Under the pieces are notes generated by a model. The model ran no database searches and was not told the DNA's origin. It saw only the letters and a program-made list of their open reading frames with translations. Positions 5,178-62,881 of a stretch of DNA of 64,000 nt are shown piece after piece (position 1 is the stretch's first letter; the number at the start of each line of letters is the position of its first letter). A program made the translations under genes and the position numbers. This stretch comes from an uncultured Spirochaetales bacterium (GTDB lineage Bacteria > UBP6 > UBA1177), in contig CAZVWR010000009.1 of the NCBI GenBank assembly GCA_964630905.1, positions 208 to 64,207 of the forward strand, given 5' to 3'.

Positions 5178-6932
<1,755 letters not shown>

Positions 6933-6951
6933 AACCTTACTCCCTTATTAA

Positions 6952-8596
<1,645 letters not shown>

Positions 8597-8602
8597 AAGT
8601 TG

Positions 8603-9439
8603 TTATTTCAATCGTTTTAAAAACAATTCAACTGCCTGTGAAACTCCTGAATTTTTGTGGTCAGCGACTGTTGTGTATGTTTTTTTGAGTTTTTCGGGAG
8701 CATTTGCGACAACAAACGGATGTCCAACTGTTTCAAGCATTTCGGCATCGTTGAAATCGTTCCCGATTCCTGCGGTATTTTCCATATGAACACCAAGTTT
8801 TGAGCACAGACTTTTTATTGCATTCCCTTTTGATACATTTTTTGGATAAACTTCTATCCACATGGTTTTGCCGTCAAGGGGTGAAGTACTCCGTATAATC
8901 TTAAGATCTTTAAGCTTTTCAGTAATTTCCTTCAAAAGGTCTTCGTCGTTATCAACAATTCCGATCAACTGACAGCTCGGTCTGAAAACTTTGAAATCAT
9001 AATCCCTGATACGGTAATAACCTCTGTAGAATTTGTGTCGTCTGATAACATCGGGATGAGGTCTGTGATAAATGAATGAGTCGTATTTATGATTTTCCGG
9101 AACTTCGTGAAGAACCATAAAATCCATTTTGTAGCTTCTTAAAACTTCAGCCGCAAATTCAGTTTCATGCGGCTCAAGATTAAATTCTTCAAGGATCTCC
9201 TCACTTGGCCAGCACTGAGTTATACAGCCCGTCGAGCAGATGAGATAATCTATCGGAAAATCTTTTTTTATCACCTTGCGGGCTGAAAAAGGAGATCTTC
9301 CGGTTGCAATAACTCTCAGTATATTCAAATCATTAAGCCGCTTTAAAGAATTGATATCAGTACTTGAAATATTGCCGTATTTATCAGCAAGAGTCCCGTC
9401 AAGATCACAGAAAAAAACTCCGGAATATGGATGTTTCAT
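8603..9439 (-). CDS. HAD-IIB (Cof-type) phosphatase
   Basis: 278 aa. Motif I is FFCDLDGTLAD. Motif IV is GIGNDFNDAEML. Confidence 0.8.
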   Translation of the reverse strand: MKHPYSGVFFCDLDGTLADKYGNISSTDINSLKRLNDLNILRVIATGRSPFSARKVIKKDFPIDYLICSTGCITQCWPSEEILEEFNLEPHETEFAAEVLRSYKMDFMVLHEVPENHKYDSFIYHRPHPDVIRRHKFYRGYYRIRDYDFKVFRPSCQLIGIVDNDEDLLKEITEKLKDLKIIRSTSPLDGKTMWIEVYPKNVSKGNAIKSLCSKLGVHMENTAGIGNDFNDAEMLETVGHPFVVANAPEKLKKTYTTVADHKNSGVSQAVELFLKRLK

Positions 9440-45405: not shown

Positions 45406-46341
45406 TTACGGGTTCGGCCAGTCAACAAAAACACAATCAGATTTTGAGCTGCAGGATGTTCCTCCGCTGTACTGACCGAGGGTCTTATTTGCGCAGTCAG
45501 CAGGGCATGAACCGTCACTTTCTATCAAATTTGTTGATACATAGCACCACTCATACCCATTTTTGTCGCAATAAGTTGAAGTGCCGACAGCTTTACATTT
45601 TTTATCAAAGGTTCCTTCGCATTCCCAGTATCCGTTCATAGATATAGTCCATGGATAAAATATACAGTCAAAAGCATCCTTACAGCTTTTTCCGTCACCC
45701 GAGTCTTTGAAATCGCAGTCCGCAGGACACGATTTTTTAGATTCACCGCTTCTTGGTTCACATGTTCCGTTTCCGCAGGCAGCCGTTCCATATTGAGGTG
45801 TACAGACCTTGCTGATACAGTCCCAGCTACCCTGTTTTTCAACGCATCCGCCTTCATCACCCCAGAATCCACCCATACAGACCTGTTTCTGTTCTCCAAG
45901 ATTATTTGTGCCGCAGGGAAGTGTTCTTGTTTCTTCGCCTACGCACTCTGTTCCGCCGGTATTTCCTGAATCACCTGTATTTCCTGAGTTGCCGGTATTT
46001 CCAGTATTTCCAGTATTTCCAGTGTTTCCGGTGTTGCCAGTATTTCCGGTGTTGCCGGTATCGCCAGAGTCACCGCTGTTGCCGGAATTACCGGTATCGC
46101 CTGAATTTCCTGAGTCACCTGTATTTCCGGTGTCTCCAGTGTTTCCGGTGTCTCCAGTGTTTCCGGTGTTGCCAGTATTTCCGGTGTTGCCGGTATTACC
46201 GGTATCTCCAGTATTGCCGGTATCTCCAGTATTACCGGTATCACCTGAATCACCTACTGCAACCCTTTTGGTCTGATTGGTGTCACATGAAATAAAAAGA
46301 AAAAAGAATGCGATCAAAATTGCAGAAAATCTGATTTTCAT
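45406..46341 (-). CDS. lipoprotein with 34 uninterrupted G-[DN]-[TS] triplets and Cys-rich C-terminal domain
   Basis: 311 aa. Lipobox [34 protein letters not shown]...GNTGGT covers 102 aa. The C-terminal 170 aa has more than 20 Cys. Confidence 0.8.
45955..46254 (-). repeat. in-frame 9-bp-periodic tandem repeat encoding (G-[DN]-[TS])34
   Basis: About 300 bp of ggtatt(t/a)cc / ggtgttgcc / ggtatc(g/t)cc units. Confidence 0.9.
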
Positions 46342-46389: not shown

Positions 46390-47487
46390 TTATGACAAAA
46401 TATTATTTTTGGAAGTTGTTTTTTTCAGTATTTCCACGACGGTCATTACATCAATGTTTACCGGATTATTGTCAGATCTGCCGGGAACGATGGATTGTCC
46501 GGCGATAGATTCAAAATCGTTTTCCAAAACACCGTAATCATAAATGTTTATGCTGAAACCCATTGAATTCATTATGTCTTTCATTTTGCCGCTCAGCCCG
46601 GAAATGTTTTTGACATTAAACAATTTGAAAAGTTCATCAAAAACCGCAGAAGTTTTCTGATTGAAATTTATTTCTGCAAGATGGGGAAGTGTAAGAAAAA
46701 CTGCAATTCCATGAGAAATTCCGAATTTAGCAGTAAGCGGATATGAAATGGCATGAGAAGCAGTTGTTTTTGAGATATTAATAGCTTTTCCTGCAAGATA
46801 GCTTCCCATTTGAAAGAGTTTGAGTTTTTCAATATTATCAGCATGTTGAATTCCTTTCAAAATAAGTTTCACCGCCTCTTTTGCGTAACCGTACGATTCT
46901 TCCGTTGCTCCTTTTGCCCACATGGATTCAACTGCCTGGGAAAGGGCATCAAGAACTGTTGCGTTCCTGATCTTTTCGGGAAGCTCAAGAAGAAAAGTAT
47001 GATCAAGTATGACCGCTTCAGCTCTGATCGTATTATGTGCGACAGAATATTTTTTCCCGTTTTTATATACAACGGCAAAATGTGTCGCTTCGCTTCCTGT
47101 TCCGCAGGTAGTTGGAACAAATATCAGTTTTTTCAAGTTCTTAAACCCTGACGGGTCTGCAAGGATGGAATCTATTTTTTCAAGACGGTTTGATAGAGCC
47201 AGAGCAATTATCTTTGCAATGTCCATGACCGTTCCGCCACCGACTGCCACAACATGAGAAAAGGCTCTTTCTTTAATGTTATCATAAAGTTGCTGAATAT
47301 CCTCAACTGGCAGTGCTGACCCTGAATATGTCAAATGGTTTGCCTTTTGTTCCGATATTATGTTGATGATGACATTCTTTTTATCGGCGTTTGCAAGAGT
47401 TTCTTCAGGCATTGTTATAAAAAGGGTTTTTTCTGCATAAATAAGTGACGGAAGAACCGAAATATCATAAAAAAGAGAGCTATCCAT
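46390..47487 (-). CDS. iron-containing alcohol dehydrogenase, probable phosphonoacetaldehyde reductase (FomC/PhpC-like)
   Basis: 365 aa Fe-ADH fold (VAVGGGTVMDIAK; HAISYPL...HGIAV). It overlaps the phosphonopyruvate decarboxylase gene by 8 nt. Confidence 0.75.
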   Translation of the reverse strand: MDSSLFYDISVLPSLIYAEKTLFITMPEETLANADKKNVIINIISEQKANHLTYSGSALPVEDIQQLYDNIKERAFSHVVAVGGGTVMDIAKIIALALSNRLEKIDSILADPSGFKNLKKLIFVPTTCGTGSEATHFAVVYKNGKKYSVAHNTIRAEAVILDHTFLLELPEKIRNATVLDALSQAVESMWAKGATEESYGYAKEAVKLILKGIQHADNIEKLKLFQMGSYLAGKAINISKTTASHAISYPLTAKFGISHGIAVFLTLPHLAEINFNQKTSAVFDELFKLFNVKNISGLSGKMKDIMNSMGFSINIYDYGVLENDFESIAGQSIVPGRSDNNPVNIDVMTVVEILKKTTSKNNILS

Positions 47488-48610
47488 TTTTTATGCAATT
47501 CATGAAATTTGCTTTGTTTTCAACAGGTGTCGTTGTCGGTCTTCCAAGATCGGGACGGGATCCTTTTTTTGATCGTACCACAAGGAGTTTGAGCTCATTA
47601 TTTTTAACCAGTTCAGGAATGGTTTTTTCCACTTCTGCAATGGAAGATGCCGAAAACACGAATTTGTAGCCGCAGTTTTTTGCAACACCTTCAAAAGAGA
47701 CTGTTGAAGATAAAGTGGGTTGTCCTCCGGTTGATTCATGTGCCTGATTGTCAATGATGATGTGAGTGATATTTCTGTTCTGTCCGTGCTTTCCAAGAGC
47801 CGCAAAAGTTCCCATCTGCATCAAAGCGGCACCGTCACCGTCAATTATGAAAACGGGTTTCCCGTGATCTCCTGTAGCAACTCCAAGAGCAATTGAAGAA
47901 GCGCAGCCCATTGATCCGACGGTATAAAAATCAGTATCATGAGGAAGCTTGAATTTTTCTCTTATTTCAAAAAGTTCTCTGCTTGTTTTTCCGGTGGTTG
48001 AAATGAAAAGAGAGTTCACCGGAGCTGCGGCAACTATTTTCTCAAGTATCTCTTCTCTGAGAGGAAGTGGATTTTCAGTTTTTTTCTTTTCAACGCAAGG
48101 CTCTGAAAACATTTCGCTTTTTACGATTATTGCAAAAGGGCTCCTGTTTACTTTACAGTATTTTAAAGCGCTGGTTATCTGTTCCTGCCAGCTCTCTATA
48201 TCAAGTTCACAGCTCTCTATTTCAAGGGTTTTAAGCAGATCTTTTGTAATGCGACCCATCATTTTATGCTGAGGTTCATCTTTTTTTCCCGGTTCGCCAC
48301 GCCATCCGATTATCATGAGCATCGGAATGGAATATACATCTTTTGAAGCAAGGGAAGTGTACGGGTTTACAGTTTTGCCGAAGCCGGAATTCTGCATGTA
48401 GACAACAGGGATCTTACCCGTTGCAAGGTGATAACCGCAGGCAATGCCGACCGCTTCACATTCATTAGATGCGGCAAGATGTTTAAACCAGGGATTGCCA
48501 GAATTGATAAATGTTGTAAGTCCTTTGAAAGTTGAGTCAGGAACACCTGTAAAAAGATCAGTTCCGTTTTCAGCAAGGAACGATATGAATTTTTCCGGAT
48601 CTATCATCAT
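47480..48610 (-). CDS. phosphonopyruvate decarboxylase (ThDP-dependent; Fom2/AepY-like)
   Basis: 376 aa. N-terminal [22 protein letters not shown]. ThDP motif [13 protein letters not shown]...IIIDN. Confidence 0.85.
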
Positions 48611-49908
48611 GTTCTCTCCGGTATGAGCGTTAAGATCTCTTTTATTGACATGCAGGCCTTGTCAGCTTCGTAGGCCCTTTCATTTTCGAGGATCGTTTGA
48701 GCAGTCTTTATCATTGCAGGATAAGCGCTTCTTAAAAGCTGGTTTGCATATATCACTATTCTGACACCGGCTTTTTTAAGTTCTGTTTCAGTTATGGAAT
48801 TATATGTCGACGGAACCACTACAAGCGGAACTTTCACATTGAACTCGTTGTATCTTCTGCAGAATTCAAGGATCTCGTCAGGAGATTTCTCTTTGCTGTG
48901 GATCATTATGCCGTCAGCCCCTGCGGCAACATAAGCCTCTGCCCTTTTTATCGCATCATCCATTCCTGCATTCAGGATGAGGGACTCTATTCTTGCAAAT
49001 ATCATGAAATTCTGAGTCACTTGCGCTTTTTTACCTGTTCTGATCTTTTCGCAGAAATTTTCAATTGAATCCTGAGTCTGCTCAACCTCTGTTCCGAAAA
49101 GAGAATTCTTTTTAAGCCCCACTTTGTCTTCTATTATCACAGCTGAAACGCCCTCCCTTTCAAGAGTTCTCACCATGAAAACAAAATGTTCGGTAAGTCC
49201 GCCGGAATCCCCGTCGAAGATTATAGGCTTTGTTGTTACTTCGAGAATGTCGGAAACCGTATTCATTCTTGAGGTAAGATCGACACATCCTATATCGGGC
49301 TTACCTTTTGCAGTCGAATCAGTAAGACTGCTGAGCCACATTGCGTCAAATTCACGGGTAACATTCTCTTTTTTTATGCTGGTCTTTTCAACGATAAGTC
49401 CGGTAAGTCCGTTATGTGCTTCCATGACTTTTACAATGTCTTTTGATTCAAGAAGTCTTCTAAGCATGTTAAGACGGATCCCCGGTGTTGTTCCCATCTC
49501 CCTTATCCAGATATTCAGCTCTGTCGAGGAAACTCCCGGTGTGTATGTGGGTTCAATAAGCTCACCGCCCCATTTTGCAAGAGCGTTTATCACTTTCTGG
49601 CGAACTTCTTTCTGTACACCCGTTTTCCAGTCATCCCCGTGAACTACAAAATCGGGTCTGTATTTTTCAAGATTCGGAACATAGTCAAGTGTCTCCTGCG
49701 GAACAACTTCTGCTACACCCTTGATGTTCTCTATGACCTTTTTTCTCTGGTCAAATGTCATATAGGGAAGCCGCTTGTAGCTTGCAATTGCTCTGTCGGT
49801 GAGAAGTCCGATAATGACATCTCCATATTTCCTCGCTTCTTCAATGATGTTAAGGTGTCCCGGATGGATAAGGTCAGCACTCATTGCCACATATACTTTT
49901 TTGTTCAT
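48607..49908 (-). CDS. bifunctional cytidylyltransferase / phosphoenolpyruvate mutase (Fom1-like fusion)
   Basis: 433 aa. The N-terminus is a TagD-like HxGH cytidylyltransferase ([22 protein letters not shown]). The C-terminus is a PEP mutase ([21 protein letters not shown]) with the diagnostic EDKx5NS motif ([12 protein letters not shown]). Confidence 0.88.
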
Positions 49909-49922
49909 TTCTGTCTCCTAAA

Positions 49923-50513
49923 TTATTTTGACATTTTTATTATCTGCAGTTCCTTTGATATGGCTTCAAAAATGGCCGGTTCATCCGCAAGAACAGCATC
50001 AATGGTCTTTTTCAGAATTTCATTTGCAGCTGCGATACCTTTTATGATCTCTTCATTTGTAGGCTTTTTAACGGCACTGTTCCTTGCTGTGTTCCAATCG
50101 TTGAAGGCAAGAAGCATTCCCTGAGTGAGTGAATAGACATCTTTCACTTTTTTTCTGTCACGGTCGAAAGTGGTCTGTTTCCACTCCTCTTCCATTTTTG
50201 CATAGTGGGGCTGGTCCCATTTCTTTTTGAAGTGCTCGATCAGAGCGGTATTTGTGTCGTAGTAATGCTTACATTTGCTCTGAATGGTTTTCAAAAGTGA
50301 TGCACTTTCGGAAAAGGCCTTGCTTTTGTTTTTCCTTGCCAGTTCCTCCATTTCACGGATAGTGTTCTTGAAAATTGTGTCATTAGGCCGGAACTCCTGA
50401 AACATTTTATATCCGTCGTTATGAAGCATGATCGACTGAACTGATTGTTTGGAGTAAAGATCTAAAGTCAGTAGCGGAATTAGAAAAGAAATCAAAAGAA
50501 ACAGATTTTTCAT
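49923..50513 (-). CDS. hypothetical secreted helical protein
   Basis: 196 aa with signal peptide MKNLFLLISFLIPLLTLDLYS. K/E-rich and helical. It sits between the phosphonate module and the fusion genes. Confidence 0.5.
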   Translation of the reverse strand: MKNLFLLISFLIPLLTLDLYSKQSVQSIMLHNDGYKMFQEFRPNDTIFKNTIREMEELARKNKSKAFSESASLLKTIQSKCKHYYDTNTALIEHFKKKWDQPHYAKMEEEWKQTTFDRDRKKVKDVYSLTQGMLLAFNDWNTARNSAVKKPTNEEIIKGIAAANEILKKTIDAVLADEPAIFEAISKELQIIKMSK

Positions 50514-50531
50514 GAATACCCCTTAAAAACA

Positions 50532-53120
50532 TTATAAGTTATCAGTTTTTTTCCAGTTTGACAAATTAAAAATATCCTCATCATACACTGTGAAGAGTTC
50601 AGTAAAAGAGTACTTGAACTTTTCCTGCTCCCTCATACGGAATCTTGTTTTCATAACGGTGAAAGGAACCTTTTTCTTTTTCATTTTAACAGGGTTTCCC
50701 GTGTATGGATTCATTCCGTCGATTATATCTTTCAATGCAAGAGAAGGAATGTCGCATGTTGTCATGAAAGTTTCTTCAAGTTCCAGTTCGCCTCTTGAAT
50801 TAAAGTCTTTCACAAGGAGAATGTTATGCCAGTGTGCGGGAGTTGTTCCTTTTTTCGACCCCTTGATCTTCTGTTCTTTAAACATGGGGTTGAAAACATT
50901 CCTGCCGTGATCGGAAACGATGATTATCCTTGTGTTGTCGTAAACTCCTTTTTCTTTCATCCAGTTGAACCATTCTCCGGCAAGTTTCAGTGCCGCTCCG
51001 TCGGTGTAGATATGTTTCAACGAATTCATGCTTCTATTATATTTTTTAAAAAGATCTAGGGGGTATTTGAGAATTCTGTCATTGCTTATGCTGAAATCAT
51101 TCCCCGTTATCCACGGTTCATGAGTGAGTTTCGTCGAAAAATAATAGAACTTTCCCCTTTCTGTTTCTGATGCACTTGATAATTCAGACAGATAATCCAA
51201 GGTACTGTAATTTTTCAAATATCCTAAAATGAGACTGTTATTTGTCTCTTTCCATGAAACCACTCCATCCTCATCAAATGATATCTTTTCCTTTTTTGCT
51301 TTTCCTTTTTTTGTTTCCACAAGGTCAGGTCGGTTCGCTTCAAGGTTCCACTGACCTTCATCATATACAGCGTTTCTCAGGAAAGGAGGCGACACTCTGA
51401 AAAATCCGAAAACGGCCAATTTTTCAATAAAATCAGATCTTTCCGCATCAAGTTCTTTTTCTTTAAGCCATGTGTCAAGATATTTTCCGGTCAAATTCTC
51501 AACAGCGGTATTCTCAAGGTGGGTTTTGTCATCAGCTTTCAGCCAGCTTGAAAGATACCCGTAGATCGTTGAATCAAATCGGGCACGGGTGAAATTGTAA
51601 GGCAGGACCCTGATCGATTCATTCATCCTGTCAACAAGAGGAACATCCTGTCTCGAAGTATTCATGACCTCCGCGTGATAATCCCAGCCACCCATTATTG
51701 ATGGTTCAGAAGAGAGAGTATCGCTACCCGATGAGAGAGAGCGGGGATACCAGACAAATCCGTCAAGTATCTCATTTTTAAGTTCAGGAATAAGTTCAGT
51801 AAGTTCGGGAATATATCCGCCGATGAATCTGTCAAGCAGAATAACAAGAACATTCTTTCTGTTAGTTGAAAAAACGAATTTTTTCTCAAGCTCTGATGCC
51901 GGCGAAAGATCTTCTGTGTCACTTTTTTCATGAAAAATAGCACCTTCGTGAATAGAAAACATAAAAAGAGATAAAGAAAGAATTGAAACAGCAATGTTTA
52001 AAATCCTGTTTTTACCGAAACGGAACAATATTCCGGTAACTACTGATATTAAAACAAGAACGGCAAGATTTATCAGGTTGTCTGTTGCTGAAATGTGAAG
52101 CCCTTCTTCAAAAACAAAATTTGAAATATCACCGTAATCACCTGCAAAAATGAAAACATTCGCAATTGCATAAAGGTAAAGTGCGGTTGTCAGTCCGGCA
52201 AGAATCTTTTTAAGAAGTTCTGAACTGTAGTAGAAAAGGGTCGATGCGGTTATTGCAAAAACAGTGAAAAGCATTAACTGGAAAGAGAGTATCTGCGAAA
52301 AAGTTCCTTCAATATCAGATTCCGAGCCCGATGCAAGAAGAATGAAAGGAACGGCTATAAAAGTCAGATAGGCAAGTGAGAAAAGAGAGATGAAAAAACC
52401 GGTGAGATATTCTTTTGAAACTTTTTCAGAAGTGAATAGATGTATTTTCCTTTGTCCTGCATATTTGAACATTATGCTTTTCACTATTCCGAAAATGTTG
52501 TTAGAAGTCCAGTATATCAGAAGTGCGCTTGAAGAGTTGTATAAAATCACAAGGAACAGTAACGAAATCACATAACTGTTTATCTTTTCCTTAAGAGAGA
52601 GATCCTTTCCGTAAACAAAAGCATATCCGAGGTTTGCGGCAGTCATGACAAAAGGCATTATATTTACAGTGAATCCTGCAATCTGAATGAGTCCGTCCGG
52701 TTCTCCGAGATTTTCAAATATTAGTGTTGAGACACCGTTTAGCTGCTGATAATCCGAGATGAAAACATATGCGGCAAAGAAAAACGGTATCTGGATCAGA
52801 AATCCAAGAGACGATCTGACAGCAAGTACCGGGTGGTAGTGATTCTGTCTGTACAGGGTGGTGATGTATCTGTTGAGAACCGAACCTTTGAAAACACTCC
52901 TGAACTCATTTATCTTGGGCTCCATTTTTTTCTGGGTGGACCGCTCAAGTGTCTGAAGTCTTTCAGCAATAATTGAAAATGGCATGGAAACAAGAGTAAC
53001 CGAAAGACTCAGAAGTATGAGTGACCAGAAATGGGATCCGGTCATACCGATAAGGTTTTCAAAGATGAATTCCATGAGAATTTTAAGGGGAAGTATGAAT
53101 ATGGTGGAAAGGTATTCCAT
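50532..53120 (-). CDS. fusion protein: YidC/Oxa1-like core, about 6 extra TM segments, and a sulfatase/alkaline-phosphatase-superfamily (LtaS/EptA-like) ectodomain (paralog B)
   Basis: 862 aa. The first roughly 215 aa follow the YidC/Oxa1 pattern (KKMEPKINEFRSVF...LYRQNHYHP...GFLIQIPFFFAAY...NLGEPD...NIMPFVM...SALLIYWTSNNIFGIV). The C-terminal domain has NVLVILLDRFIGGY, a Thr-containing GSDTLSSEP loop, LTHEP and IIIVSDHGRN. Confidence 0.7.
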   Translation of the reverse strand: MEYLSTIFILPLKILMEFIFENLIGMTGSHFWSLILLSLSVTLVSMPFSIIAERLQTLERSTQKKMEPKINEFRSVFKGSVLNRYITTLYRQNHYHPVLAVRSSLGFLIQIPFFFAAYVFISDYQQLNGVSTLIFENLGEPDGLIQIAGFTVNIMPFVMTAANLGYAFVYGKDLSLKEKINSYVISLLFLVILYNSSSALLIYWTSNNIFGIVKSIMFKYAGQRKIHLFTSEKVSKEYLTGFFISLFSLAYLTFIAVPFILLASGSESDIEGTFSQILSFQLMLFTVFAITASTLFYYSSELLKKILAGLTTALYLYAIANVFIFAGDYGDISNFVFEEGLHISATDNLINLAVLVLISVVTGILFRFGKNRILNIAVSILSLSLFMFSIHEGAIFHEKSDTEDLSPASELEKKFVFSTNRKNVLVILLDRFIGGYIPELTELIPELKNEILDGFVWYPRSLSSGSDTLSSEPSIMGGWDYHAEVMNTSRQDVPLVDRMNESIRVLPYNFTRARFDSTIYGYLSSWLKADDKTHLENTAVENLTGKYLDTWLKEKELDAERSDFIEKLAVFGFFRVSPPFLRNAVYDEGQWNLEANRPDLVETKKGKAKKEKISFDEDGVVSWKETNNSLILGYLKNYSTLDYLSELSSASETERGKFYYFSTKLTHEPWITGNDFSISNDRILKYPLDLFKKYNRSMNSLKHIYTDGAALKLAGEWFNWMKEKGVYDNTRIIIVSDHGRNVFNPMFKEQKIKGSKKGTTPAHWHNILLVKDFNSRGELELEETFMTTCDIPSLALKDIIDGMNPYTGNPVKMKKKKVPFTVMKTRFRMREQEKFKYSFTELFTVYDEDIFNLSNWKKTDNL

Positions 53121-53134
53121 AAAATTGTCCTTTG

Positions 53135-54418
53135 TTAAGATCCTGCGATCCGCATTATTTCATCAGCACCTTTTAACCCCGATTCTCCCGGAAATTTATC
53201 CATGCTGTTATGAATGAATTCAAGATGATTAGCAAATTCAGCTTTGTCTGCAAGTTTTTCATTGATAAGTCTTTCCAGATATTCAATATCATGCTCTTCA
53301 ATTGAAACACCTGTTTTTTCAACTGCCTGCAACACCCATGGATCCTCTTTTATGTCCATTGAATCGTGTCCCCGTTTGTCGTAATTTCCTTTGAAAGCCA
53401 GTACCGGTTTTTCAAATAGAAGGATAAAATCAAATATTATTCCGGAAAAATCGCTTATCATTATGTCAGCTGTTTTCATTGATTCTGTGCCGTCAGGAGC
53501 ACTATCCCAGACAAGATGCTCCCCGTCAGGAAATTTATTTTTCAGTTCGCTGATAAGATCTTTGTCTGATATCCATCCTTGAGGGTGGGGTCGCACTATG
53601 ATATTGAATTTATTGAGATTCGTGAGATGTGTAAGTATTTTTTCACCATATTTTCTAAGCAGTCCGTGAAGTCCCCATGTGGGGGAAAGGAGTATTGTGA
53701 TCCTGTCTGAAGGAGTCACTTTGATTTTGGACGCTTTTTCACGGAGAACATCCATATAAGTGCATCCTATGGCGACAAGTTCCTTTGCCGGCAGTCCGCG
53801 AACCTGTTCAAGTTCGCGAATAAATTCAATATCTGAATCTCCTCCGGTAAGGACGGCATCATAGTAATCAGTCCCGTATGTTGCGTAACCGCTGCATCCT
53901 CCTCCTGTAGAGTGAGGGATGTGAACATATTTTCTAACCCCTTTGCTTCTTTTTATCTGAAGAACATCCAGTCCGGGGGTTGTCATAATGCAGACATCGG
54001 CAGTCATGGTATTCATGTAGAAGAAAGCTTTGTTCCCTTCACCGATGAACTTTGTTTCGATATTTGGGAATCCGCAGGTTAAACCCGGATCGTTCTCTTT
54101 GCTTGTCAGATAGGTGCATTTGATGCCTCTAGAGCTTAACTCTTTGATAACAGGCAGGAAAACATTCCAGTACTGAGGACCTTCAGAATAAAATACGATA
54201 GAGTGTTTTGTTTTTTTTTCTCTGCCGACCCCTGAAATATAGGCGGGAAGATCTATTATCTTGAAAAACAGTCCTTTGATAACAAAAAAAAGTGTTGCGA
54301 CTATACCTATGACAGCGGAAAACAGCATGCTTCCTGAACCGGGATCAAGATAACCGAAAAGAGGAAGCGGCAGTATGATCATTAACAAAAGATAGGTCAA
54401 AACCCTGTTTTTATTCAT
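53135..54418 (-). CDS. TagB/TagF-family (CDP-glycerol glycerophosphotransferase-like) phosphotransferase with N-terminal TM anchor
   Basis: About 427 aa from MNKNRVLTYLLLMIILPL. Has ADIMISDFSGIIFDFILLFEKPVL and the preceding HP..GW region typical of the Glyphos_transf family. The track start at 54532 overlaps the upstream gene and is rejected. Confidence 0.68.
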   Translation of the reverse strand: MNKNRVLTYLLLMIILPLPLFGYLDPGSGSMLFSAVIGIVATLFFVIKGLFFKIIDLPAYISGVGREKKTKHSIVFYSEGPQYWNVFLPVIKELSSRGIKCTYLTSKENDPGLTCGFPNIETKFIGEGNKAFFYMNTMTADVCIMTTPGLDVLQIKRSKGVRKYVHIPHSTGGGCSGYATYGTDYYDAVLTGGDSDIEFIRELEQVRGLPAKELVAIGCTYMDVLREKASKIKVTPSDRITILLSPTWGLHGLLRKYGEKILTHLTNLNKFNIIVRPHPQGWISDKDLISELKNKFPDGEHLVWDSAPDGTESMKTADIMISDFSGIIFDFILLFEKPVLAFKGNYDKRGHDSMDIKEDPWVLQAVEKTGVSIEEHDIEYLERLINEKLADKAEFANHLEFIHNSMDKFPGESGLKGADEIMRIAGS

Positions 54419-57038
54419 AAAGCCTTCTCCATTTTGAAGGTGAATCAATATCTTCAAATTTTTCAACCACATATTTTTCATGATATCTGTATTTGAATTT
54501 GTCCTGCTTTTCAACGCGCCACTGAACATCATAGATATAGAACGGAAATTTATTCTTTGGCATTTCTATCTTTTTTCCAGTGTAAGGGTTTACCGCATCG
54601 GGAATTATATCTTTGACCGCCAGAGCCGGAACATCGGCCGATGTCATGAACTCATTCTCTGTCCGGAGCTCTCCCTGAGAATCAAAATCTTTTACCAGAA
54701 GCAGATTGTTGTAATATGAAGGGTGGGCTTTTTTTCTGGTATTAGGGATCCGCTGCTGTTTGAAGAAAGGATTGTAGACATCTCTTCCGTGATCAGAAAC
54801 AATGATTATCCTAGTGTTGTCGTATACTCCGCTATCTTTCATCCATCGAATCCATTTGTTGACCAGTCTCAGTGCCGCAGCGTCTGTATAAAGATGTCTT
54901 ACAGCGGTGAGACTTTTGTGGAATTTGTTGAATACCGACCTGGGATATGTGACTTTTCCGGTGACCTCAAATTCAAAATCGCTGTTTATCGAATGGGGTT
55001 CATGGGTCAGATTATTTGAAAGAAAAATGAACTGTCCTTTTCCCTCTTCAAGAACTCTCGACATTTCCGGAAGAAAATCGAGTGCGGCATAATATTTCAG
55101 AGTTGTGTCTCTTCTGTATTTGCTTTTCTGGTTTGCGATCACAAACTTTTTCTCATCCGGTTTTTCATAATTTTCCTCATTTTCTACATCTGATTCGATA
55201 TGCCATTCCCCTTTGTCGTAGATAAATTCCCTTACAAAAAGAGGTGAAGCCCGAAACAGTCCGAATGCGAGCAGTTTTTTTCTGAGAGTATCATCATTAC
55301 CGCTTTCCTTTTCATTTTTCTGAAGCCACATCTCTCTGTATTTAGGGTAATCAGGTTCAATGAATTGGGTGTTGCCTATATATTCCTTGTTGTTTTCATC
55401 AACCCAGTTGGTGCTTTTGTCAAACCAGTTTATGCAGTCTGTCCGGTAAATTTTCACGCCGTACCCGGACTTGTCGAAGTTGTACGGAAGTATTCTGGAA
55501 CTCTCATCCAGTTTTTTAAGCAGAGGAACCTCGGTTCTTATCAGATTTGCATTATGAACATTGTAATCCCATCCGCCAAGTATGGGCGGGACTCCTCCGA
55601 TAGTATAGCTTGCCTGCGAAAGAGAATTTCTGTAATAGACAAATCCGTCGAGATCTGATTTGAGGTTTGGCATAAGTTCAAGGATCTGAGGCATATAGCC
55701 GCCGATAAACCTGTCAAGCATAATAATGACAACATTTTTCCCTGTCTTTGAAAATGTGTAATGGTTTTCTTTCAGATCGATCTGAGCTATTAAAATATTT
55801 GTTCTTTTATCCTTGTAGGCAAATGATTCGTTTATCGAAAAAAGAATAAGCGATATTATGATGACTGAAAGTGCCGGTCTTAAAAACCGGGTCCATTTTT
55901 TAAGAAGAAGAAAAACCGCACCGGCAATTATCACTCCGGAAAAGATATTTAAAAGGATTTCAAACATCTCTATTTCAAGCTCTTCGTTAAATACAAAATG
56001 GCTCATGTCACCGTAGTTGCCTGCAAATGCAAAAGTGTTTATCAGTCCATATAAAAGAAGGAAAAGTGCTGCCGCACAAAGAACGGTCCGTCCTTTTTTG
56101 CTGAAAATATAATAGATTACAACGGCTGCTGTGAAAAAAACAAATGAAAAAGCCAAAAGATAGTAAAAATAGTGCGACAACGCTTCTTCAAAATCGGAAG
56201 ATGACCCCGAAGAAAGGACTGCAAGAGGAACCGATATGAAAGTTAGTATTGTAAAAGCTGCTGCCGCAAGTCTGAAGATCCTGTCGGTCTCTTTCGAGGA
56301 ATCGGGAATAAATTTGAACAGTTTCTGCAATAACTCCGGTGTTTTTTCTCTTTTTGTTATAGCACCGTCCTTATATATGAAAAGATAAACAACATTCTTG
56401 ATAAGAGCAAAAATGTTGTTGCAGGTCCAGTAAAAAAGAAGCGCACTTGTTGAATTATAAAGAACCACAAGAAAAAGAAGTGCCATTCCGTAAAGCTGAA
56501 ACTGTTCCTTCAAAGAGGTCTTTTTCCCGTATACAATCGCCGACCCGATATTCACCGCAGTCATAAGCAGAGGCATGATATTTACCGAGAAGGAACCGAT
56601 TGAAAGAAGTGAATCGGGTTTTCCGAGATCTTTAAAAAGTGCTGTCGTGACACCATTGAATGCGGAATAATTTGAAAGAAGGTGATATGCGGCAAAGAAG
56701 AAAGGGATCTGTATCAGCAGTCCGAAAGATGCCCTTATGGCAAAAGCGGGATGGTATCCGTTCTGTCTGTAAAGGGTGCTGATGTAACTGTTTAGCGCCG
56801 ATCCCCTGAAAACCGCCTTGAATTCTGATATTTTCGGTTTAAGTTTTTTCTGGGTCTCCCTTTCTTTATCCTGCCACGATTCGGCAATGTGATAAAGTGG
56901 AAGTGAGCCGATAGAAACAGCGATGCTTAGAACCATAAGTGAGATCAGAGGACTTCCTGTTGAAGAAAGTGCCCATTCGAGCACTGATTTCATTAAAAAT
57001 TCAAGGGGGTATATGAAAATATTGTAAAAAATCTCCAT
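54411..57038 (-). CDS. fusion protein: YidC/Oxa1-like core, extra TM segments, and sulfatase/LtaS/EptA-like ectodomain (paralog A)
   Basis: 875 aa, roughly 50% identical by eye to 50532..53120. Has KKLKPKISEFKAVF...LYRQNGYHP...GLLIQIPFFFAAY...DLGKPD...SALLFYWTCNNIFALI, then NVVIIMLDRFIGGY, ASYTIGGVPP, LTHEP and IIIVSDHGRD. Confidence 0.7.
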   Translation of the reverse strand: MEIFYNIFIYPLEFLMKSVLEWALSSTGSPLISLMVLSIAVSIGSLPLYHIAESWQDKERETQKKLKPKISEFKAVFRGSALNSYISTLYRQNGYHPAFAIRASFGLLIQIPFFFAAYHLLSNYSAFNGVTTALFKDLGKPDSLLSIGSFSVNIMPLLMTAVNIGSAIVYGKKTSLKEQFQLYGMALLFLVVLYNSTSALLFYWTCNNIFALIKNVVYLFIYKDGAITKREKTPELLQKLFKFIPDSSKETDRIFRLAAAAFTILTFISVPLAVLSSGSSSDFEEALSHYFYYLLAFSFVFFTAAVVIYYIFSKKGRTVLCAAALFLLLYGLINTFAFAGNYGDMSHFVFNEELEIEMFEILLNIFSGVIIAGAVFLLLKKWTRFLRPALSVIIISLILFSINESFAYKDKRTNILIAQIDLKENHYTFSKTGKNVVIIMLDRFIGGYMPQILELMPNLKSDLDGFVYYRNSLSQASYTIGGVPPILGGWDYNVHNANLIRTEVPLLKKLDESSRILPYNFDKSGYGVKIYRTDCINWFDKSTNWVDENNKEYIGNTQFIEPDYPKYREMWLQKNEKESGNDDTLRKKLLAFGLFRASPLFVREFIYDKGEWHIESDVENEENYEKPDEKKFVIANQKSKYRRDTTLKYYAALDFLPEMSRVLEEGKGQFIFLSNNLTHEPHSINSDFEFEVTGKVTYPRSVFNKFHKSLTAVRHLYTDAAALRLVNKWIRWMKDSGVYDNTRIIIVSDHGRDVYNPFFKQQRIPNTRKKAHPSYYNNLLLVKDFDSQGELRTENEFMTSADVPALAVKDIIPDAVNPYTGKKIEMPKNKFPFYIYDVQWRVEKQDKFKYRYHEKYVVEKFEDIDSPSKWRRLYE

Positions 57039-57050
57039 TTCCTGATGACC

Positions 57051-58367
57051 TTATTTAAGAACTCTTTCAATTCTTTTAAGGCCTTCGAGGATATCTTCCT
57101 CCTTAACATCGAGGAACGGTCTGAATCTGACGGAAACATCTCCGCATGGAAGAACGATGAGATTTTCCTTTGTCATACAGTCATTGAGAAATTTCTTGCG
57201 TGCATCCTTGCTTTCAAGGTCAAAAGATACAAAAAGCCCCTTCCCCCTTACATTGGAAACTTTGCCTGTCTTTTTTGCGATCTTTTCAAGCCCAGTGACG
57301 AGAACCTTTCCCATTTTCCTGGCATTATCAAGAAGTTTGTCATCTCTAATTATTTCAAGATAACGGGTTACTCTTTTCATATCGACAATGCTTCCGCCCC
57401 ATGTCGAATTTATTCTGCTCGATTCTGCAAAGACATTGTTGGGAACTTCAAGAACCCTGTCACCCACCATTATGCCGCATATCTGGAATTTTTTACCGAA
57501 ACAGATAACATCCGGCTTCACACCGTAGTGTTCGTGAGCCCACATTTTTCCTGTTATACCGCCGCCTGACTGTACTTCGTCAAAAATAAGAAGAAATTCA
57601 TATTTGTCAGCAAGTTTTCTCAGTTCTTCCATATATTCCGGTCTGAAATGGTTGTCTCCGCCTTCACCCTGGATCGGTTCAATTATGAGCCCTGCAATGT
57701 CATCTTTATACTTTTTGCATGCTTCAGTTATCTGTGCAATGGATTTTTTTTCAGCTTCCTTAACTTTTTTGAGAGTTGCTTCATTCATCGGGAATATCAT
57801 CTTCGGATTTTCAACTCTCGGCCAGTCAAACATCGGGAAATACTGATATTTTCTCGGATCTGATGTGTTGGTCATGCTCAAAGTATAACCTGTTCTGCCG
57901 TGGAAGGACTGTTTGAAATGGATGATCTTTGTCCCTTTTTCGGTCTTGATCCCTTTAGCGAAGTTCTTTCTCACTTTCCAGTCGAAAGCAGTTTTTAAAG
58001 CGTTCTCTACGGCAAGTGCTCCGCCTGATATGAAAAACATTTTCTTCATATATTTAGGCATTGCGACTTCCGCCATTATCTGTGTGAATTCAGCCATTGT
58101 CGTTGTGTAGAAATCGCTGTTTGAAATGTTGTGCAAAGAAATGCGTCCGATCTCCTCAATGAATTTCCTGTTATTCATTTTCGGATGATTGAATCCCAGC
58201 GGCATTGATGCAAAAAACGAAAAGAAATCGAGATATTCCTTTTTATGTTTTGCGTCATAAAGATAACTTCCGTGACTTTTTTCAGCGTCCACGACAATGT
58301 CATATCCGTCACAAAGGATATATTTTCCAAGAATTTCATGAACCTGTTTAGCATTGATCTTTTTCAT
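57051..58367 (-). CDS. lat: class III PLP aminotransferase, L-lysine 6-transaminase type
   Basis: 438 aa, collinear with LAT. Has GGALAVENALKTAFDWK, EPIQGEGGDNHFRPEY, LIFDEVQSGGGITG, FGKKFQICG and NSTWGG. Confidence 0.85.
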   Translation of the reverse strand: MKKINAKQVHEILGKYILCDGYDIVVDAEKSHGSYLYDAKHKKEYLDFFSFFASMPLGFNHPKMNNRKFIEEIGRISLHNISNSDFYTTTMAEFTQIMAEVAMPKYMKKMFFISGGALAVENALKTAFDWKVRKNFAKGIKTEKGTKIIHFKQSFHGRTGYTLSMTNTSDPRKYQYFPMFDWPRVENPKMIFPMNEATLKKVKEAEKKSIAQITEACKKYKDDIAGLIIEPIQGEGGDNHFRPEYMEELRKLADKYEFLLIFDEVQSGGGITGKMWAHEHYGVKPDVICFGKKFQICGIMVGDRVLEVPNNVFAESSRINSTWGGSIVDMKRVTRYLEIIRDDKLLDNARKMGKVLVTGLEKIAKKTGKVSNVRGKGLFVSFDLESKDARKKFLNDCMTKENLIVLPCGDVSVRFRPFLDVKEEDILEGLKRIERVLK

Positions 58368-59064
58368 TTAACCCTCCTTTTGAATGAACATATTCTGATA
58401 TTATTAACTGAAGTTTTTCAGCAACACTTTTTCTTGAATCCCCTTCTTCAATTTTTACAGGAGGGAAAATTTTCATATAGACTGTTCCCTTGTTTACTGT
58501 CAGTTTCCCCGGCCGCATTATCTTGTCAACACCTGTCAAAGCAACGGGAAGTATCGTTTTCCCTGTTTCAAATGCAAGCGAAAATGCCCCGCTTTTAAAT
58601 TTTCCGACCCTTCCGTCCTTTGATCTTGTCCCTTCCGGAAAAACAAGGAACGAACAATGTTTCATTTTTTGAGCCGCTTTTTTGAGATCTCTCACAGCTT
58701 CACGCTGGTTGTTCCTGTTCACAAAAACAAAATCATAAAGTACCATCAACTGTCCGAAAACAGGGATCCTTGAGAGTTCTTTTTTTGCAAATATCCTCAA
58801 GTTAAGCGGTAATACTGCACCTATTACAGGGATGTCAAAAACACTCTGGTGGTTGCCGACAACAAGATATATTTCGTTTTCATCAACATTTTCAATTCCT
58901 TCGGCAACTATTTTGACTCCGCAAATTTTTAAAACGACAATAAAAAGGTTCCTCACAAGATATTTTCCAGTCTTTTTGCCACTTAAAATATAAAACGGAT
59001 AAAGCAGAGCTCCCCAGATCACATAAAAGATCAGAAAGATAAGTCCTGCGGAATATCTGAGCAT
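58348..59064 (-). CDS. plsC: 1-acyl-sn-glycerol-3-phosphate acyltransferase
   Basis: 238 aa with an N-terminal TM. HX4D in VGNHQSVFDIP. FPEGTRSKDG motif. Confidence 0.85.
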   Translation of the reverse strand: MLRYSAGLIFLIFYVIWGALLYPFYILSGKKTGKYLVRNLFIVVLKICGVKIVAEGIENVDENEIYLVVGNHQSVFDIPVIGAVLPLNLRIFAKKELSRIPVFGQLMVLYDFVFVNRNNQREAVRDLKKAAQKMKHCSFLVFPEGTRSKDGRVGKFKSGAFSLAFETGKTILPVALTGVDKIMRPGKLTVNKGTVYMKIFPPVKIEEGDSRKSVAEKLQLIISEYVHSKGGLNEKDQC

Positions 59065-61125
59065 TTACTGTTTGACCTCTTTCTTTTGTTCCTCTTCCTT
59101 TTTCTTTTCCTCTTCCTTTTTTTTCTGCTCCTCTTCTAATTGAGCAGGTGTCATGAAAGGTTCCTTATTCCGGCCTATCATAACTGCACTCCTTCCGGTC
59201 ATTCTGTTGTATTCGTCAAATTTTACCGGAGTGCCTGAAAGGATCGATGTAAATTCTGTCCCGTTAAGTGCAGAAACAAACCCTGAAACATCTTTTTTGC
59301 CCGATCTTTCAAGTCCTGTGAACAGTATTTCACACACTTCGGCAATAAAATTCTCAATGAAATAAAGACCTCTTCCGTTCTTTTCACTGAAATTTTTTGT
59401 GATCTCTGAATATGCCTTGTTAGAATCTGAAAAGTTATTGACAGGAGCATAGACTATCATTCCGTCAATCGTTGTTCCAAGCTGTTCTATAACTTTTTCA
59501 CTGCTTACAAGCTCAGACGGTGCGATAACGAGTATCTGCTGAATGTCCCAGTCATAACCGGCTTCGCGAAGATCCTGTTCTCTTCCTGCAACATTTCTGT
59601 TCAGATATTTCTGGTAATATTCAAACTCGACATTCATATAGGGAAATGAAGGAAGGAACATCGGCATGTGAAAAACAGGTGTGGCGACAACAAGAGCGTC
59701 AAAATCACATTTACCGGGAATTGTCTTTGCAAGTCTTTCCAGAGCTCTCCTCATCAAGGTGTCATTGTTAAACTTTTCCTTGTTCTTCCATCTGAAGAGC
59801 TTAATGGCCTCGTCATAGTTGTCCGGTTTTCCGATCACCTTTTCCACATCATCAAAAAAGGCGTTGTCTCCGGGCGAGAGATCGAGCAGATCTGTCACGC
59901 TTCCACCCATATCCTCAATATTCTTCCAGTACATATCTCTCAGGATGCGACCTTCCCTGTTGTCAAGATATGCGATAGCGAATTTTTTCTTTTCTCTTTC
60001 ATTAACAGCATATCTGATAATGTTCTCCGATTCGCTGTCTTTTGACGGCATGACATTATAAAAAAGCCCTTTCAATGTTGAGATGTAAGGTATGTAGGAA
60101 ACAACAGGTATTGCTGTCTCAAGCGATCTTTCTTTGAATGTCTGTGCAAATTCGGGGGCGAAAAAAGGTCCTGCGACGGCAAAACATTTTATCTCTTTCG
60201 CCTTTTCAAACAGTTTGTCAATGTCGGTTTCATCAAGATAATTTAAAAATGTGAGCTGTATTCCGCTCTTTCTGTAATCTTTAAAATACCATGTTATGAA
60301 TGAAGTAATCACTTCGTTGAACTTTGTCCATTTTTCATCGTTTGAAAGTGCAACACAGAGATTGTTCCAGTCGGGCACGCGGGTTGCATCATAAGTTTCA
60401 TCAATCGGAATTTCTTCAATTATTTCAGAATCTTCTTCAAGTTTTTTCATTTCATCGAGAACTTCTTCTTTCATGTTTTCAGGAATATCCCCGCTTTTCC
60501 CGCCGGGCTCCATTGACAGATAGTTGTTGAAATCACTTCTATTCGTCTGAGATCTGTTCATCCACTCTTCAAGTTCAACTTTTGCATTTTCCTTTTTCAC
60601 ATCGTCAAGAGCCGAGTACCATGTCGCCGCTTTTTCAACCCTTTTGGAATAAAGGTAGGCAAGCAGTACTGTTTTTGACCCTCTGACCTTCTCCTCTTTT
60701 CCGAGTTTGAGATATATTGAAAGAATCCATTTCAGAGCTTCATCGTATTTACCGGTCTTAAGAGCCGCTTCGCCTGCCGTAAGATGAGTTTCGTTCACAA
60801 AAGGTTTTACACCCTTGAGTTCATTGAATATTTCAAGAGATCTATCATATTGCCCTTTGTTAACAAATGCTTTTGCAAGTCTGAATTTTATGAATTCATA
60901 CTGCCACTTAGCCCATCTGAGCTTAAGCATTTCGCCCGAAAATGTTTCAATCCCTGCGTGATCTGAAACGGCCTCAAGGGAGTGATACTTCGCTTCAACC
61001 TCTTCCCATGTGAGTTCCGGTGTTGAAGCCGCAGGTCTTGTAACATATGAACACGCTGACATAAAAAAAAGCGCTGTCATCAGGGTCAGAATGGAAATTG
61101 TCGATCTTTTCATAAGCCACCTCAC
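59065..61125 (-). CDS. lipoprotein with N-terminal TPR region and C-terminal periplasmic-binding-protein-like domain (LpoA/LppC-like), K/E-rich tail
   Basis: 686 aa. Signal/lipobox ILTLMTALFFMSAC. TPR-like helices, then a type-1 PBP-like alpha/beta region. Ends EEEQKKKEEEKKKEEEQKKEVKQ. The family call is tentative. Confidence 0.4.
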   Translation of the reverse strand: MRWLMKRSTISILTLMTALFFMSACSYVTRPAASTPELTWEEVEAKYHSLEAVSDHAGIETFSGEMLKLRWAKWQYEFIKFRLAKAFVNKGQYDRSLEIFNELKGVKPFVNETHLTAGEAALKTGKYDEALKWILSIYLKLGKEEKVRGSKTVLLAYLYSKRVEKAATWYSALDDVKKENAKVELEEWMNRSQTNRSDFNNYLSMEPGGKSGDIPENMKEEVLDEMKKLEEDSEIIEEIPIDETYDATRVPDWNNLCVALSNDEKWTKFNEVITSFITWYFKDYRKSGIQLTFLNYLDETDIDKLFEKAKEIKCFAVAGPFFAPEFAQTFKERSLETAIPVVSYIPYISTLKGLFYNVMPSKDSESENIIRYAVNEREKKKFAIAYLDNREGRILRDMYWKNIEDMGGSVTDLLDLSPGDNAFFDDVEKVIGKPDNYDEAIKLFRWKNKEKFNNDTLMRRALERLAKTIPGKCDFDALVVATPVFHMPMFLPSFPYMNVEFEYYQKYLNRNVAGREQDLREAGYDWDIQQILVIAPSELVSSEKVIEQLGTTIDGMIVYAPVNNFSDSNKAYSEITKNFSEKNGRGLYFIENFIAEVCEILFTGLERSGKKDVSGFVSALNGTEFTSILSGTPVKFDEYNRMTGRSAVMIGRNKEPFMTPAQLEEEQKKKEEEKKKEEEQKKEVKQ

Positions 61126-61230
61126 TTTTTCTAAAGCGGTATACTATACAAAGAATCTTAATAATCAAGTTATGATTCTTTTAATACCTAAAATTTAAAT
61201 TTAAGTTTATATGATGGGATGATTTGTTTT

Positions 61231-62850: not shown

Positions 62851-62881
62851 TGAGAAACCTCCGGTTTCCGGTGAAACCTTT

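Follow-up and report, generated by a model that had tools for sequence, protein, structure and literature searches.

What does an enzyme of the teichoic-acid transferase type do when it is encoded close to genes for making and activating a phosphonate? The question is raised by the gene at positions 53135–54418 (minus strand) of a 64,000-nucleotide stretch of contig CAZVWR010000009.1 from an uncultured Spirochaetales bacterium, which we refer to as the window. An annotation made from the letters alone (the sequence-only reading) had proposed that this TagF-like enzyme either caps a glycan with 2-hydroxyethylphosphonate (HEP) or polymerizes it, with CMP-HEP as the donor. Our analysis indicates that the enzyme probably uses a CMP-activated phosphonate, which to judge from the neighboring genes would be CMP-HEP in the window, and that transfer of a single head group is more likely than formation of poly(HEP). 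It also brings forward a point that the sequence-only reading had overlooked, namely that the two “sulfatase fusions” on either side of the gene are obligate partners of the enzyme and not bystanders.

A Divergent TagB/TagF-Family Transferase

The gene is real, and its product is a divergent member of the TagB/TagF family. The open reading frame (ORF) listing of the window gives a single frame of 465 aa (53135..54532, minus strand), but the ATG at 54418, which yields a protein of 427 aa (MNKNRVL...), is the better start, because a GGAGAAGG Shine–Dalgarno sequence lies 4 nt 5' of it, because it overlaps the stop codon of the upstream gene (54411–57038), and because the nearest homologues are themselves 427 aa long and cover 100% of the 427-aa query. 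The Pfam profile PF04464 (Glyphos_transf) matches the protein with 31.6 bits against a gathering cut-off of 22.1 (E = 1.1e-7), the match being restricted to profile positions 157–296 of 367 in the C-terminal half, and nearly all listed homologues carry the precomputed tag for this family, while none of the NCBIfam models matched the window protein. The AlphaFold2 (AF2) model (20 homologues in the alignment, pLDDT 83) starts with two helices at the N-terminus, after which comes a GT-B domain of two Rossmann folds. Its first-ranked Foldseek match in the PDB is TagF (3l7k_D, E = 1.2e-10, TM scores 0.52/0.56), with the TagF-like capsule polymerases Bcs3 and Cps3D also among the top five, and the likeness of the model to the TagF fold is not due to chance. 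With the ISDFSGIIFDF motif at residues 321–331, the earlier description of a membrane-anchored Glyphos_transf enzyme is thus borne out. The same is true of its location, as both flanking genes encode 60KD_IMP and Sulfatase domains (Table 1), and the CTP_transf_like–PEP_mutase fusion of the phosphonate module, said to lie 3.2 kb away and co-directional, begins on the same strand at 49908, 3,227 nt further downstream.

Ahead of the soluble domain, the AF2 model places hydrophobic helices at residues 3–15 and 31–55, the first of which is missing from several homologues and from the fusions described below. Directly before the second, conserved transmembrane (TM) helix lies a Y(L/I)DPG(S/T)GSM motif (residues 23–31, window 54326–54352, minus strand) that is invariant in 20 homologues of 40–78% identity, and that might be a contact site for one of the membrane partners.

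The sequence-only reading had pointed to the two catalytic histidines of TagF as a means of comparison. To fix their numbering, the N-terminal domain of Staphylococcus epidermidis TagF was rebuilt from a frameshifted contig, which places H444 in QTWHGTPLK and H584 in RMHY. In both HMMER and hhalign alignments (hhalign probability 89%, E = 2.4e-6), H278 of the window protein, in RPHPQ, falls on H584 of TagF, in LLRMHY, with SDFSGIIFD aligned to TDYSSVMFD and the PTW motif aligned as well. Since H278 and the nucleotide-binding motif are invariant among the aligned homologues, the alignments identify H278 as the equivalent of H584, so that the histidine of the C-terminal domain is retained.

The CMP-HEP Module and Its Likely User

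Between 43.6 and 63.9 kb of the window every gene lies on the minus strand, and within this region seven genes form an operon running from 57038 to 46390, with intergenic gaps of at most 18 nt or overlaps (Table 1). The cytidylyltransferase–phosphoenolpyruvate (PEP) mutase fusion scores 415 bits against the PEP_mutase model TIGR02320 (cut-off 320) and 60 bits against PF01467, and an EDKxxxxxNS motif is found in its PEP mutase part. Its cytidylyltransferase domain is identical at 88 of 133 residues (66%) to PDB entry 5x3d, which we take to be the HEP cytidylyltransferase domain of Fom1, but reaches only 43 bits against TagD (1coz). The PF01467 domain of Fom1 converts HEP to CMP-HEP (Rice 2019, PMC6697681), and by this likeness the domain in the window likely makes CMP-HEP too. 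The Fe-dependent alcohol dehydrogenase (Fe-ADH) has Phn_Fe-ADH (TIGR03405) as its best NCBIfam match, at 177 bits and under that model’s cut-off of 424, and is likely a phosphonoacetaldehyde reductase yielding HEP. On these family assignments, the designation of the cassette as a CMP-HEP module appears well founded.

Which enzyme would then consume CMP-HEP? A search of the operon by ORFs, Pfam, and NCBIfam returned no nucleotide-dependent transferase other than the TagF-like enzyme, and its genes include no glycosyltransferase, no flippase, no ABC exporter, and no exporter of the TagGH or Wzx type. Within the operon, CMP-HEP thus has no plausible user apart from the TagF-like enzyme, which alone has a fold for nucleotide-activated donors and is encoded together with a cytidylyltransferase so close to 5x3d. 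Taken with the invariant H278 and the linkage to pepM described below, this makes the donor proposed by the sequence-only reading a probable one.

Conservation of the Gene Neighborhood

We compared 80 loci collected by pattern scan (one genome per species, with flanks of up to 10 kb), using tblastn and all-against-all clustering of the locus ORFs; a full-flank subset comprises the 27 loci in which both flanks are 8 kb or longer. The loci come from Spirochaetota including Treponema, Desulfovibrionaceae, Sutterella, Erysipelothrix, Sumerlaeota, Nitrospira, and unnamed phyla. PEP mutase (PepM) or phosphonopyruvate decarboxylase (Ppd) is encoded within 10 kb of the TagF-like gene in 23 of the 80, and the stop codon of that gene abuts or overlaps a cytidylyltransferase–PepM gene in L001, L044, L051, L055, L067, L070, and L078. 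Phosphonate-linked genes of any kind are present in 35/80 loci and 15/27 full-flank loci. As ppm occurs anywhere in the genome in only about 5% of bacteria (Li & Horsman 2022), the presence of PepM/Ppd genes within 10 kb of the TagF-like gene in 23/80 loci is a very large enrichment. The adjacency to phosphonate genes seen in the window is thus found in relatives as well, and the link of the TagF-like gene to phosphonates is both conserved and specific.

The association with membrane proteins carrying a YidC-like domain and/or an alkaline phosphatase (AP)-superfamily domain is broader still (66/80 loci; 23/27 with full flanks). Where the two domains are fused, as in the window, the gene occurs in one to four copies per locus, at a median gap of 21 bp from the TagF-like gene and on the same strand in 77 of 78 copies. 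Other loci have YidC-like, TagF-like, and AP components as three separate genes (L009–L014), or a TagF-like enzyme fused to TM helices and an AP domain, in which case a separate YidC-like gene lies directly upstream (L015, L016, L018–L020); in L016 this fusion (5715–8834, 1039 aa) was confirmed to contain PF04464. The occurrence of the components in every fusion arrangement, a Rosetta-stone pattern, argues for one functional unit.

Partner Proteins with YidC-like and AP-Superfamily Domains

The two partners in the window are 44% identical and share one architecture, which in partner 1 consists of a YidC-like domain (residues 3–223), about five more TM helices, and an extracytoplasmic AP-superfamily domain. 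The YidC-like domains (56370–57038 and 52452–53120, minus strand) are clearly recognizable, that of partner 1 matching YidC2 of Bacillus halodurans (3wo6) with E = 1e-7 and Escherichia coli YidC with E = 7.6e-12. The arginine of the hydrophilic groove, however, is replaced, with SIAVSIGSLPLY in the window domains against TILIRLALLPL in YidC2, and alignments of the fused family have Gly or Ser at this position. All NCBIfam YidC models score the partners under their cut-offs. By sequence, then, the N-terminus is a YidC-derived domain and not a bona fide housekeeping YidC, and it is probably a neofunctionalized insertase domain; in the databases, homologues are named merely “YidC/Oxa1 family membrane protein insertase”.

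In the AF2 model of partner 1 (pLDDT 85), helices extend to about residue 413 and are followed by an alpha/beta domain. The top Foldseek matches among full-length chains are PbgA (6xlp, 751 columns) and MCR-1 (9nww, 651 columns), and the soluble LtaP domain (4uop), phosphonate monoester hydrolases, and sulfatases are also returned. Residues D442, T479, H679, D749, and H750 are invariant in 30 aligned homologues, and the CxPxR formylglycine motif is not present in any of these 30. The spacing from D442 to T479 is 37 residues, close to the roughly 40–45 residues of LtaS and EptA, and T479 is the putative nucleophile. Because of the Foldseek matches to PbgA, MCR-1, and LtaP, the invariant D442/T479/D749/H750, and the missing formylglycine motif, the predicted protein fits better with a Thr-nucleophile head-group transferase of the LtaS/EptA kind than with a sulfatase.

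Two homologues of partner 1 (P0282 and P0285, about 1250 aa) carry an additional NPCBM domain (PF08305), a putative glycan-binding domain, which hints at a glycan acceptor in the organisms concerned.

Exchangeable Donor Cassettes

The genes that would supply the donor differ between loci (Table 1). TagF-like orthologues at 40–60% identity to the window protein occur mostly with cassettes for 2-aminoethylphosphonate (AEP), in which the PntC–AEP transaminase (AEPT) fusion can be traced to a known enzyme, that of L044 being an orthologue of Tde1415 (6pd1, 927 bits). The pepM-less loci L031, L032, L038, L074, L079, L080, and L020 have a 156-aa TagD-like cytidylyltransferase with an ABC importer, and in such importers the binding protein and permease have their best matches in PhnS2/PhnU2, a putative AEP transporter (346 and 381 bits, each under its cut-off). 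This suggests, by analogy with choline scavenging in the Lic pathway, that these loci may scavenge environmental AEP for surface decoration. In a further type, a LicC-like nucleotidyltransferase is fused to a CobD-like pyridoxal phosphate domain of the threonine-phosphate decarboxylase family (83 bits), often accompanied by a gene resembling octopine/nopaline dehydrogenase (L003 1823–4745, L005 3319–6099, L006 11308–14244, L048 5544–7394, L052 11247–13076), which suggests a CDP-activated amino-alcohol phosphate as the head group.

In a neighbor-joining tree of the TagF-like proteins these donor types are interleaved, the HEP-type pair of the window and L001 being sister to L002, L003, and L005 of the LicC–CobD type. 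The comparison of L002 with window positions 46390–62937 gives a clear view of such an exchange: the flanking proteins are 93–99% identical, whereas the TagF-like enzyme is 63% and the two partners 77% and 60% identical, and an octopine dehydrogenase-like gene with a LicC-like cassette stands in place of PepM, Ppd, and Fe-ADH. As the backbone is near-identical while island and donor cassette differ, the module looks like a replaceable surface-decoration island whose cassette is swapped between close strains.

A tandem array with two TagF-like genes and four YidC–AP genes is present in Treponema putidum ATCC 700334 (L035, 4563–18093). No nucleotidyltransferase or pepM gene was found within the 18 kb examined, and the donor pathway must be encoded elsewhere.

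Proposed Mechanism and Alternatives

We propose that the operon encodes a self-contained system for decorating the cell envelope with HEP, by means of a relay between the TagF-like enzyme and the YidC–AP partners, a proposal to which, in this complete form, we give an even chance of being right. HEP would be made by PEP mutase, phosphonopyruvate decarboxylase, and Fe-ADH, for which the family assignments are strong, and converted to CMP-HEP by the Fom1-like cytidylyltransferase domain, as its 66% identity to 5x3d would imply. The TagF-like enzyme, to judge from its fold, its conserved motifs, and its gene context, would take a single HEP-phosphonyl group from CMP-HEP and, on the cytoplasmic side, attach it to a hydroxyl of an acceptor bound to the membrane, with release of CMP. 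The two partners would carry the group across the membrane, where the outward-facing AP domain, probably by way of its Thr nucleophile, would hand it to the final envelope acceptor or acceptors, in parallel to the use of phosphatidylglycerol by LtaS or of phosphatidylethanolamine by EptA. Two AP paralogues would then mean two acceptors or two steps. The YidC-like domain could either flip the intermediate or hold the short N-out tail and TM helix of the TagF-like enzyme, so that all three parts would form a complex, the latter role being suggested by the fact that a short tail with one TM helix is the class of substrate that YidC inserts. In other organisms, the same three-part machine would take other small head groups, and would thus be a generic module for bringing a CMP-activated head group to the surface.

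Several points weigh against this proposal. A lipid-linked intermediate, its flipping by the YidC-like domain, and a final envelope acceptor are all hypothetical, and the function of the TagF-like subfamily is a prediction from fold, motifs, and gene context. Characterized TagB and TagF enzymes act on undecaprenyl-linked acceptors, and their product leaves by ABC transporters and not by a relay. A search of the PDB with the profile of the N-terminal domain found no TagF-family structure, and the two placements of TagF H444 conflict: in local and global hhalign alignments, which are non-significant, it falls on the invariant P148 of MTTPGLD, where there is no histidine, whereas a mapping by strand order (β5 of the AF2 model, residues 160–166) points to one of two histidines, H166 (90% conserved) or H169 (invariant). 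Alignment of the AP domain to solved structures by sequence reaches the SDHG region alone, and the assignment of its putative Thr nucleophile rests on conservation and spacing. Finally, 8 of the 27 full-flank loci are without a nucleotidyltransferase of the recognized types nearby, and the small cytidylyltransferases of some loci have TagD as their best NCBIfam match (84 bits, cut-off 165), so that part of the family may use CDP-glycerol.

This last point bears on the possibility that the window enzyme is itself an ordinary CDP-glycerol or CDP-ribitol glycerophosphotransferase for a conventional teichoic-acid-like chain, with the phosphonate genes as mere neighbors in a shared envelope-biogenesis island. 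The databases do name the family “CDP-glycerol glycerophosphotransferase family protein”, the motifs of the C-terminal domain are those of CDP-glycerol users, and the TagD matches just mentioned are found in pepM-less loci. Against this, the sole TagD-type enzyme in the window operon is the Fom1-like domain fused to PEP mutase, pepM is enriched beside the TagF-like gene far over background, the importers of the pepM-less loci point to PhnS2/PhnU2 (if below cut-off), and there is no TagGH exporter nearby; we consequently regard this possibility as decidedly remote. An arrangement without a relay, in the manner of LicD, is less easily set aside, and we consider it unlikely. Here, the TagF-like enzyme would add HEP to a cytoplasmic lipid-linked glycan (an undecaprenyl-diphosphate oligosaccharide or a glycolipid anchor), the export of which would fall to proteins encoded elsewhere, and the YidC–AP proteins would act separately, for instance by placing phosphoglycerol or phosphoethanolamine from ordinary phospholipids on the same glycan, or in ligation. 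The evidence for the donor fits this arrangement equally well, TagB, TagF, and LicD are all established to operate in this way (the Lic pathway is summarized in PMC10434233), and LicD-like enzymes or glycosyltransferases have been proposed for the steps after CMP-AEP (Rice 2019, PMC6697681). It leaves unexplained, however, why the TagF-like gene is near-obligately adjacent to, co-oriented with, and fused in all permutations to YidC and AP components, up to a TagF–AP polypeptide, and it must contend with an operon that has no glycosyltransferase, flippase, or ABC exporter.

On whether a single group or a chain is transferred, the sequence-only reading, which had allowed for either capping or polymerization, can be narrowed. 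Head-to-tail poly(HEP) could arise in the cytoplasm through the TagF-like enzyme or, in the style of lipoteichoic acid, outside through the LtaS/LtaP-like paralogues. HEP does have a free hydroxyl, TagF and LtaS are polymerases within their families, and the two AP paralogues of the window recall the LtaP/LtaS pair of Listeria, LtaP being among the Foldseek matches. AEP, in contrast, has no hydroxyl for chain extension, and single transfer is favored because most orthologous modules are paired with this non-polymerizable group and because no polymer exporter is encoded in the operon or nearby. The interleaving of donor types on the TagF-like tree argues in the same direction, since HEP cassettes arise sporadically, several times over, in a family otherwise tied to non-polymerizable donors. 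Multiple AP paralogues are no sign of a polymer either, as up to four are equally common in AEP loci such as L033 and L039, and no sequence feature identified here separates polymerases from single-transfer enzymes. Capping by a single HEP group is therefore the part of the earlier suggestion that we favor, and the teichoic-acid-like chain the part that we do not, poly(HEP) being highly improbable on this evidence. A composite version, in which a dedicated phosphonate lipid is flipped by the insertase domain and the LtaS/LtaP-like paralogues then build poly(HEP) as a lipoteichoic acid analogue with a C–P backbone, strikes us as very doubtful. The argument that a reductase in place of a transaminase fits a polymerizable monomer fails in turn: the reductase belongs to one of several interchangeable cassettes and is no signature of polymerization.

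Other Features of the Window

Table 1. Genes of the window operon, with window positions, and types of donor cassette, with the loci or taxa in which they occur
Feature	Position or occurrence	Strand	Support or remarks
Partner 1, YidC-like + AP-superfamily (“sulfatase”) fusion, 875 aa	54411..57038	−	Pfam 60KD_IMP 73 bits, Sulfatase 39 bits
TagF/TagB-family (Glyphos_transf) transferase, 427 aa	53135..54418	−	Pfam, AF2, Foldseek, motifs, start-site context
Partner 2, paralogue of partner 1, 862 aa	50532..53120	−	60KD_IMP 63 bits, Sulfatase 25.3 bits
Predicted secreted protein, 196 aa	49923..50513	−	no Pfam/NCBIfam match
Fom1-type cytidylyltransferase (residues 5–137) + PEP phosphomutase (residues 146–431)	48607..49908	−	PF01467, TIGR02320
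Phosphonopyruvate decarboxylase (Ppd)	47480..48610	−	TIGR03297 440.7 bits, cut-off 312.5
Fe-dependent alcohol dehydrogenase (Fe-ADH)	46390..47487	−	Pfam Fe-ADH; overlaps Ppd stop
HEP cassette (PepM + Ppd + Fe-ADH)	window, L001, L004, L015, L016, L023		arrangement as in the window
AEP cassette (PepM + Ppd + PntC–AEPT)	about 17 loci		
Small cytidylyltransferase + ABC importer	Desulfovibrionaceae, Sutterella, Photobacterium, Erysipelothrix		
LicC-like nucleotidyltransferase/CobD-like decarboxylase fusion, with or without octopine dehydrogenase-like gene	L002, L003, L005, L006, L048, L052, L064		

The 196-aa protein, predicted to be secreted and helical, has its sole homologue in L001, where it is 71% identical and encoded just after the Fe-ADH gene; it is a possible member of the module. 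The class-III aminotransferase gene (57051–58367, minus strand), which lies directly upstream of the first YidC–AP gene at a distance of 12 nt, encodes a member of the L-lysine 6-transaminase family (612 bits, above cut-off). We considered it, together with the PlsC and tetratricopeptide repeat (TPR) genes that are likewise upstream, as a member of the module, and rejected all of these, as they are 93–97% identical (97% for the aminotransferase) in L002, in which the island is replaced. The aminotransferase is thus probably outside the module, although it may make AEP from phosphonoacetaldehyde. On the other side, 48 nt downstream of Fe-ADH, lies the gene of a lipoprotein (45406–46341, minus strand) in which a long collagen-like repeat (Pfam Collagen, 57 bits) is found along with a Cys-rich C-terminus. 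It is absent from the syntenic L001, and that its Thr-rich repeat is an acceptor for phosphonylation is speculation. A scan of the window against Rfam gave zero matches, and a scan for promoters and terminators gave no more sites than shuffled sequence.

Implications

Surface decoration is the presumed role of about half of all phosphonate gene clusters in bacteria. For the step after CMP activation, in which the phosphonate is joined to the bacterial surface, the TagF-like family is a strong candidate, and we nominate it together with its obligate membrane partner; the groups are probably added singly. Members of the family number in the thousands and are spread over Spirochaetota, Desulfovibrionaceae, Sutterella, Erysipelothrix, and uncultured phyla. 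Metagenome-assembled genomes of Treponema have the same arrangement beside an orthologue of Tde1415, and Treponema denticola is cultivable, gives phosphonate signals in whole-cell 31P nuclear magnetic resonance, and is the source of a solved PntC structure. Beyond the transfer step itself, the partners would represent the recruitment of a YidC-derived domain into small-molecule envelope chemistry, and the change of surface head groups from one near-identical strain to another, through exchange of the cassette, would be relevant to antigenic variation and to phosphorus cycling.

In the literature, PntC enzymes are described as making CMP-AEP, with the later steps called “enigmatic” (Rice 2019, PMC6697681); TagF-like genes are not discussed in that paper, and we found no enzyme assigned to the Pnt transferase step in the 2019 or later literature searched. 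Glyphos_transf and YidC are likewise not mentioned in Li & Horsman 2022, where Selenomonas clusters with “multiple sulfatases” are described that correspond to the “Group 4 phosphonolipids” of Yu 2013. Our search for TagF-like or YidC–sulfatase proteins in phosphonate contexts, the coverage of which was incomplete, found no account of the module. An Erysipelothrix “tagF” vaccine mutant was considered as a precedent and rejected, as the gene concerned, ERH_0432, encodes 381 aa and is not the TagF–AP fusion of about 1000 aa seen in L018–L020.

Comparison with Known Systems

The window protein shares with TagF, TagB, TarL, Cps3D, and Bcs3 (PF04464) the GT-B fold and the PTW, R-x-H-(P/Y), and (T/S)D(Y/F)S(S/G)xxFD motifs, and in line with the cytidine-nucleotide-activated donors of that family, CMP would be the expected leaving group. 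It differs in that the similarity is detectable in the C-terminal half only, with the WHG motif (H444) not recognizable; in that it is anchored by a true N-terminal TM helix with an invariant YLDPGSGSM and not by an amphipathic helix; in its partners, which are YidC-like/AP-superfamily proteins and not TagD and TagGH; and in its putative donor, a phosphonate monoester (CMP-HEP) in place of a CDP-alditol. With Fom1, the module has in common the same cytidylyltransferase–PEP mutase fusion, which likely acts on HEP. In the fosfomycin pathway, CMP-HEP occurs as a transient intermediate that a methyltransferase uses, whereas the window is without fosfomycin tailoring genes, and CMP-HEP would here be the donor for envelope decoration.

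The partners resemble LtaS/LtaP, EptA/MCR-1, and PbgA (YejM) in having a TM bundle with an extracytoplasmic AP domain, and the intervals between their invariant Asp, Thr, and Asp–His residues would suit putative metal ligands and a putative Thr nucleophile. Unlike these proteins, they add an N-terminal YidC-like domain, they have no detectable sequence similarity to the LtaS, EptA, or PbgA families, and their donor would be a dedicated phosphonate lipid made by the TagF-like enzyme and not bulk phospholipid. The five-TM core of that YidC-like domain is clearly homologous to YidC/Oxa1, but it is fused or adjacent to a transferase, occurs in one to four copies in variable surface islands, and has lost the groove arginine.

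At the level of the pathway as a whole, the logic is that of the Lic system (LicC and LicD) and of the proposed Pnt pathway (PntC, e.g., Tde1415; PMC6697681), in which a head group is obtained, activated with CTP, and transferred to the surface, and the AEP-type relatives of the window module carry clear Tde1415 orthologues. The difference from Lic lies in the transferase, which belongs to the TagF and not to the LicD family. The module is thus related to the known systems Lic/Pnt, TagB, and LtaS/EptA, with three-component transfer of single phosphonate units as its most likely function.

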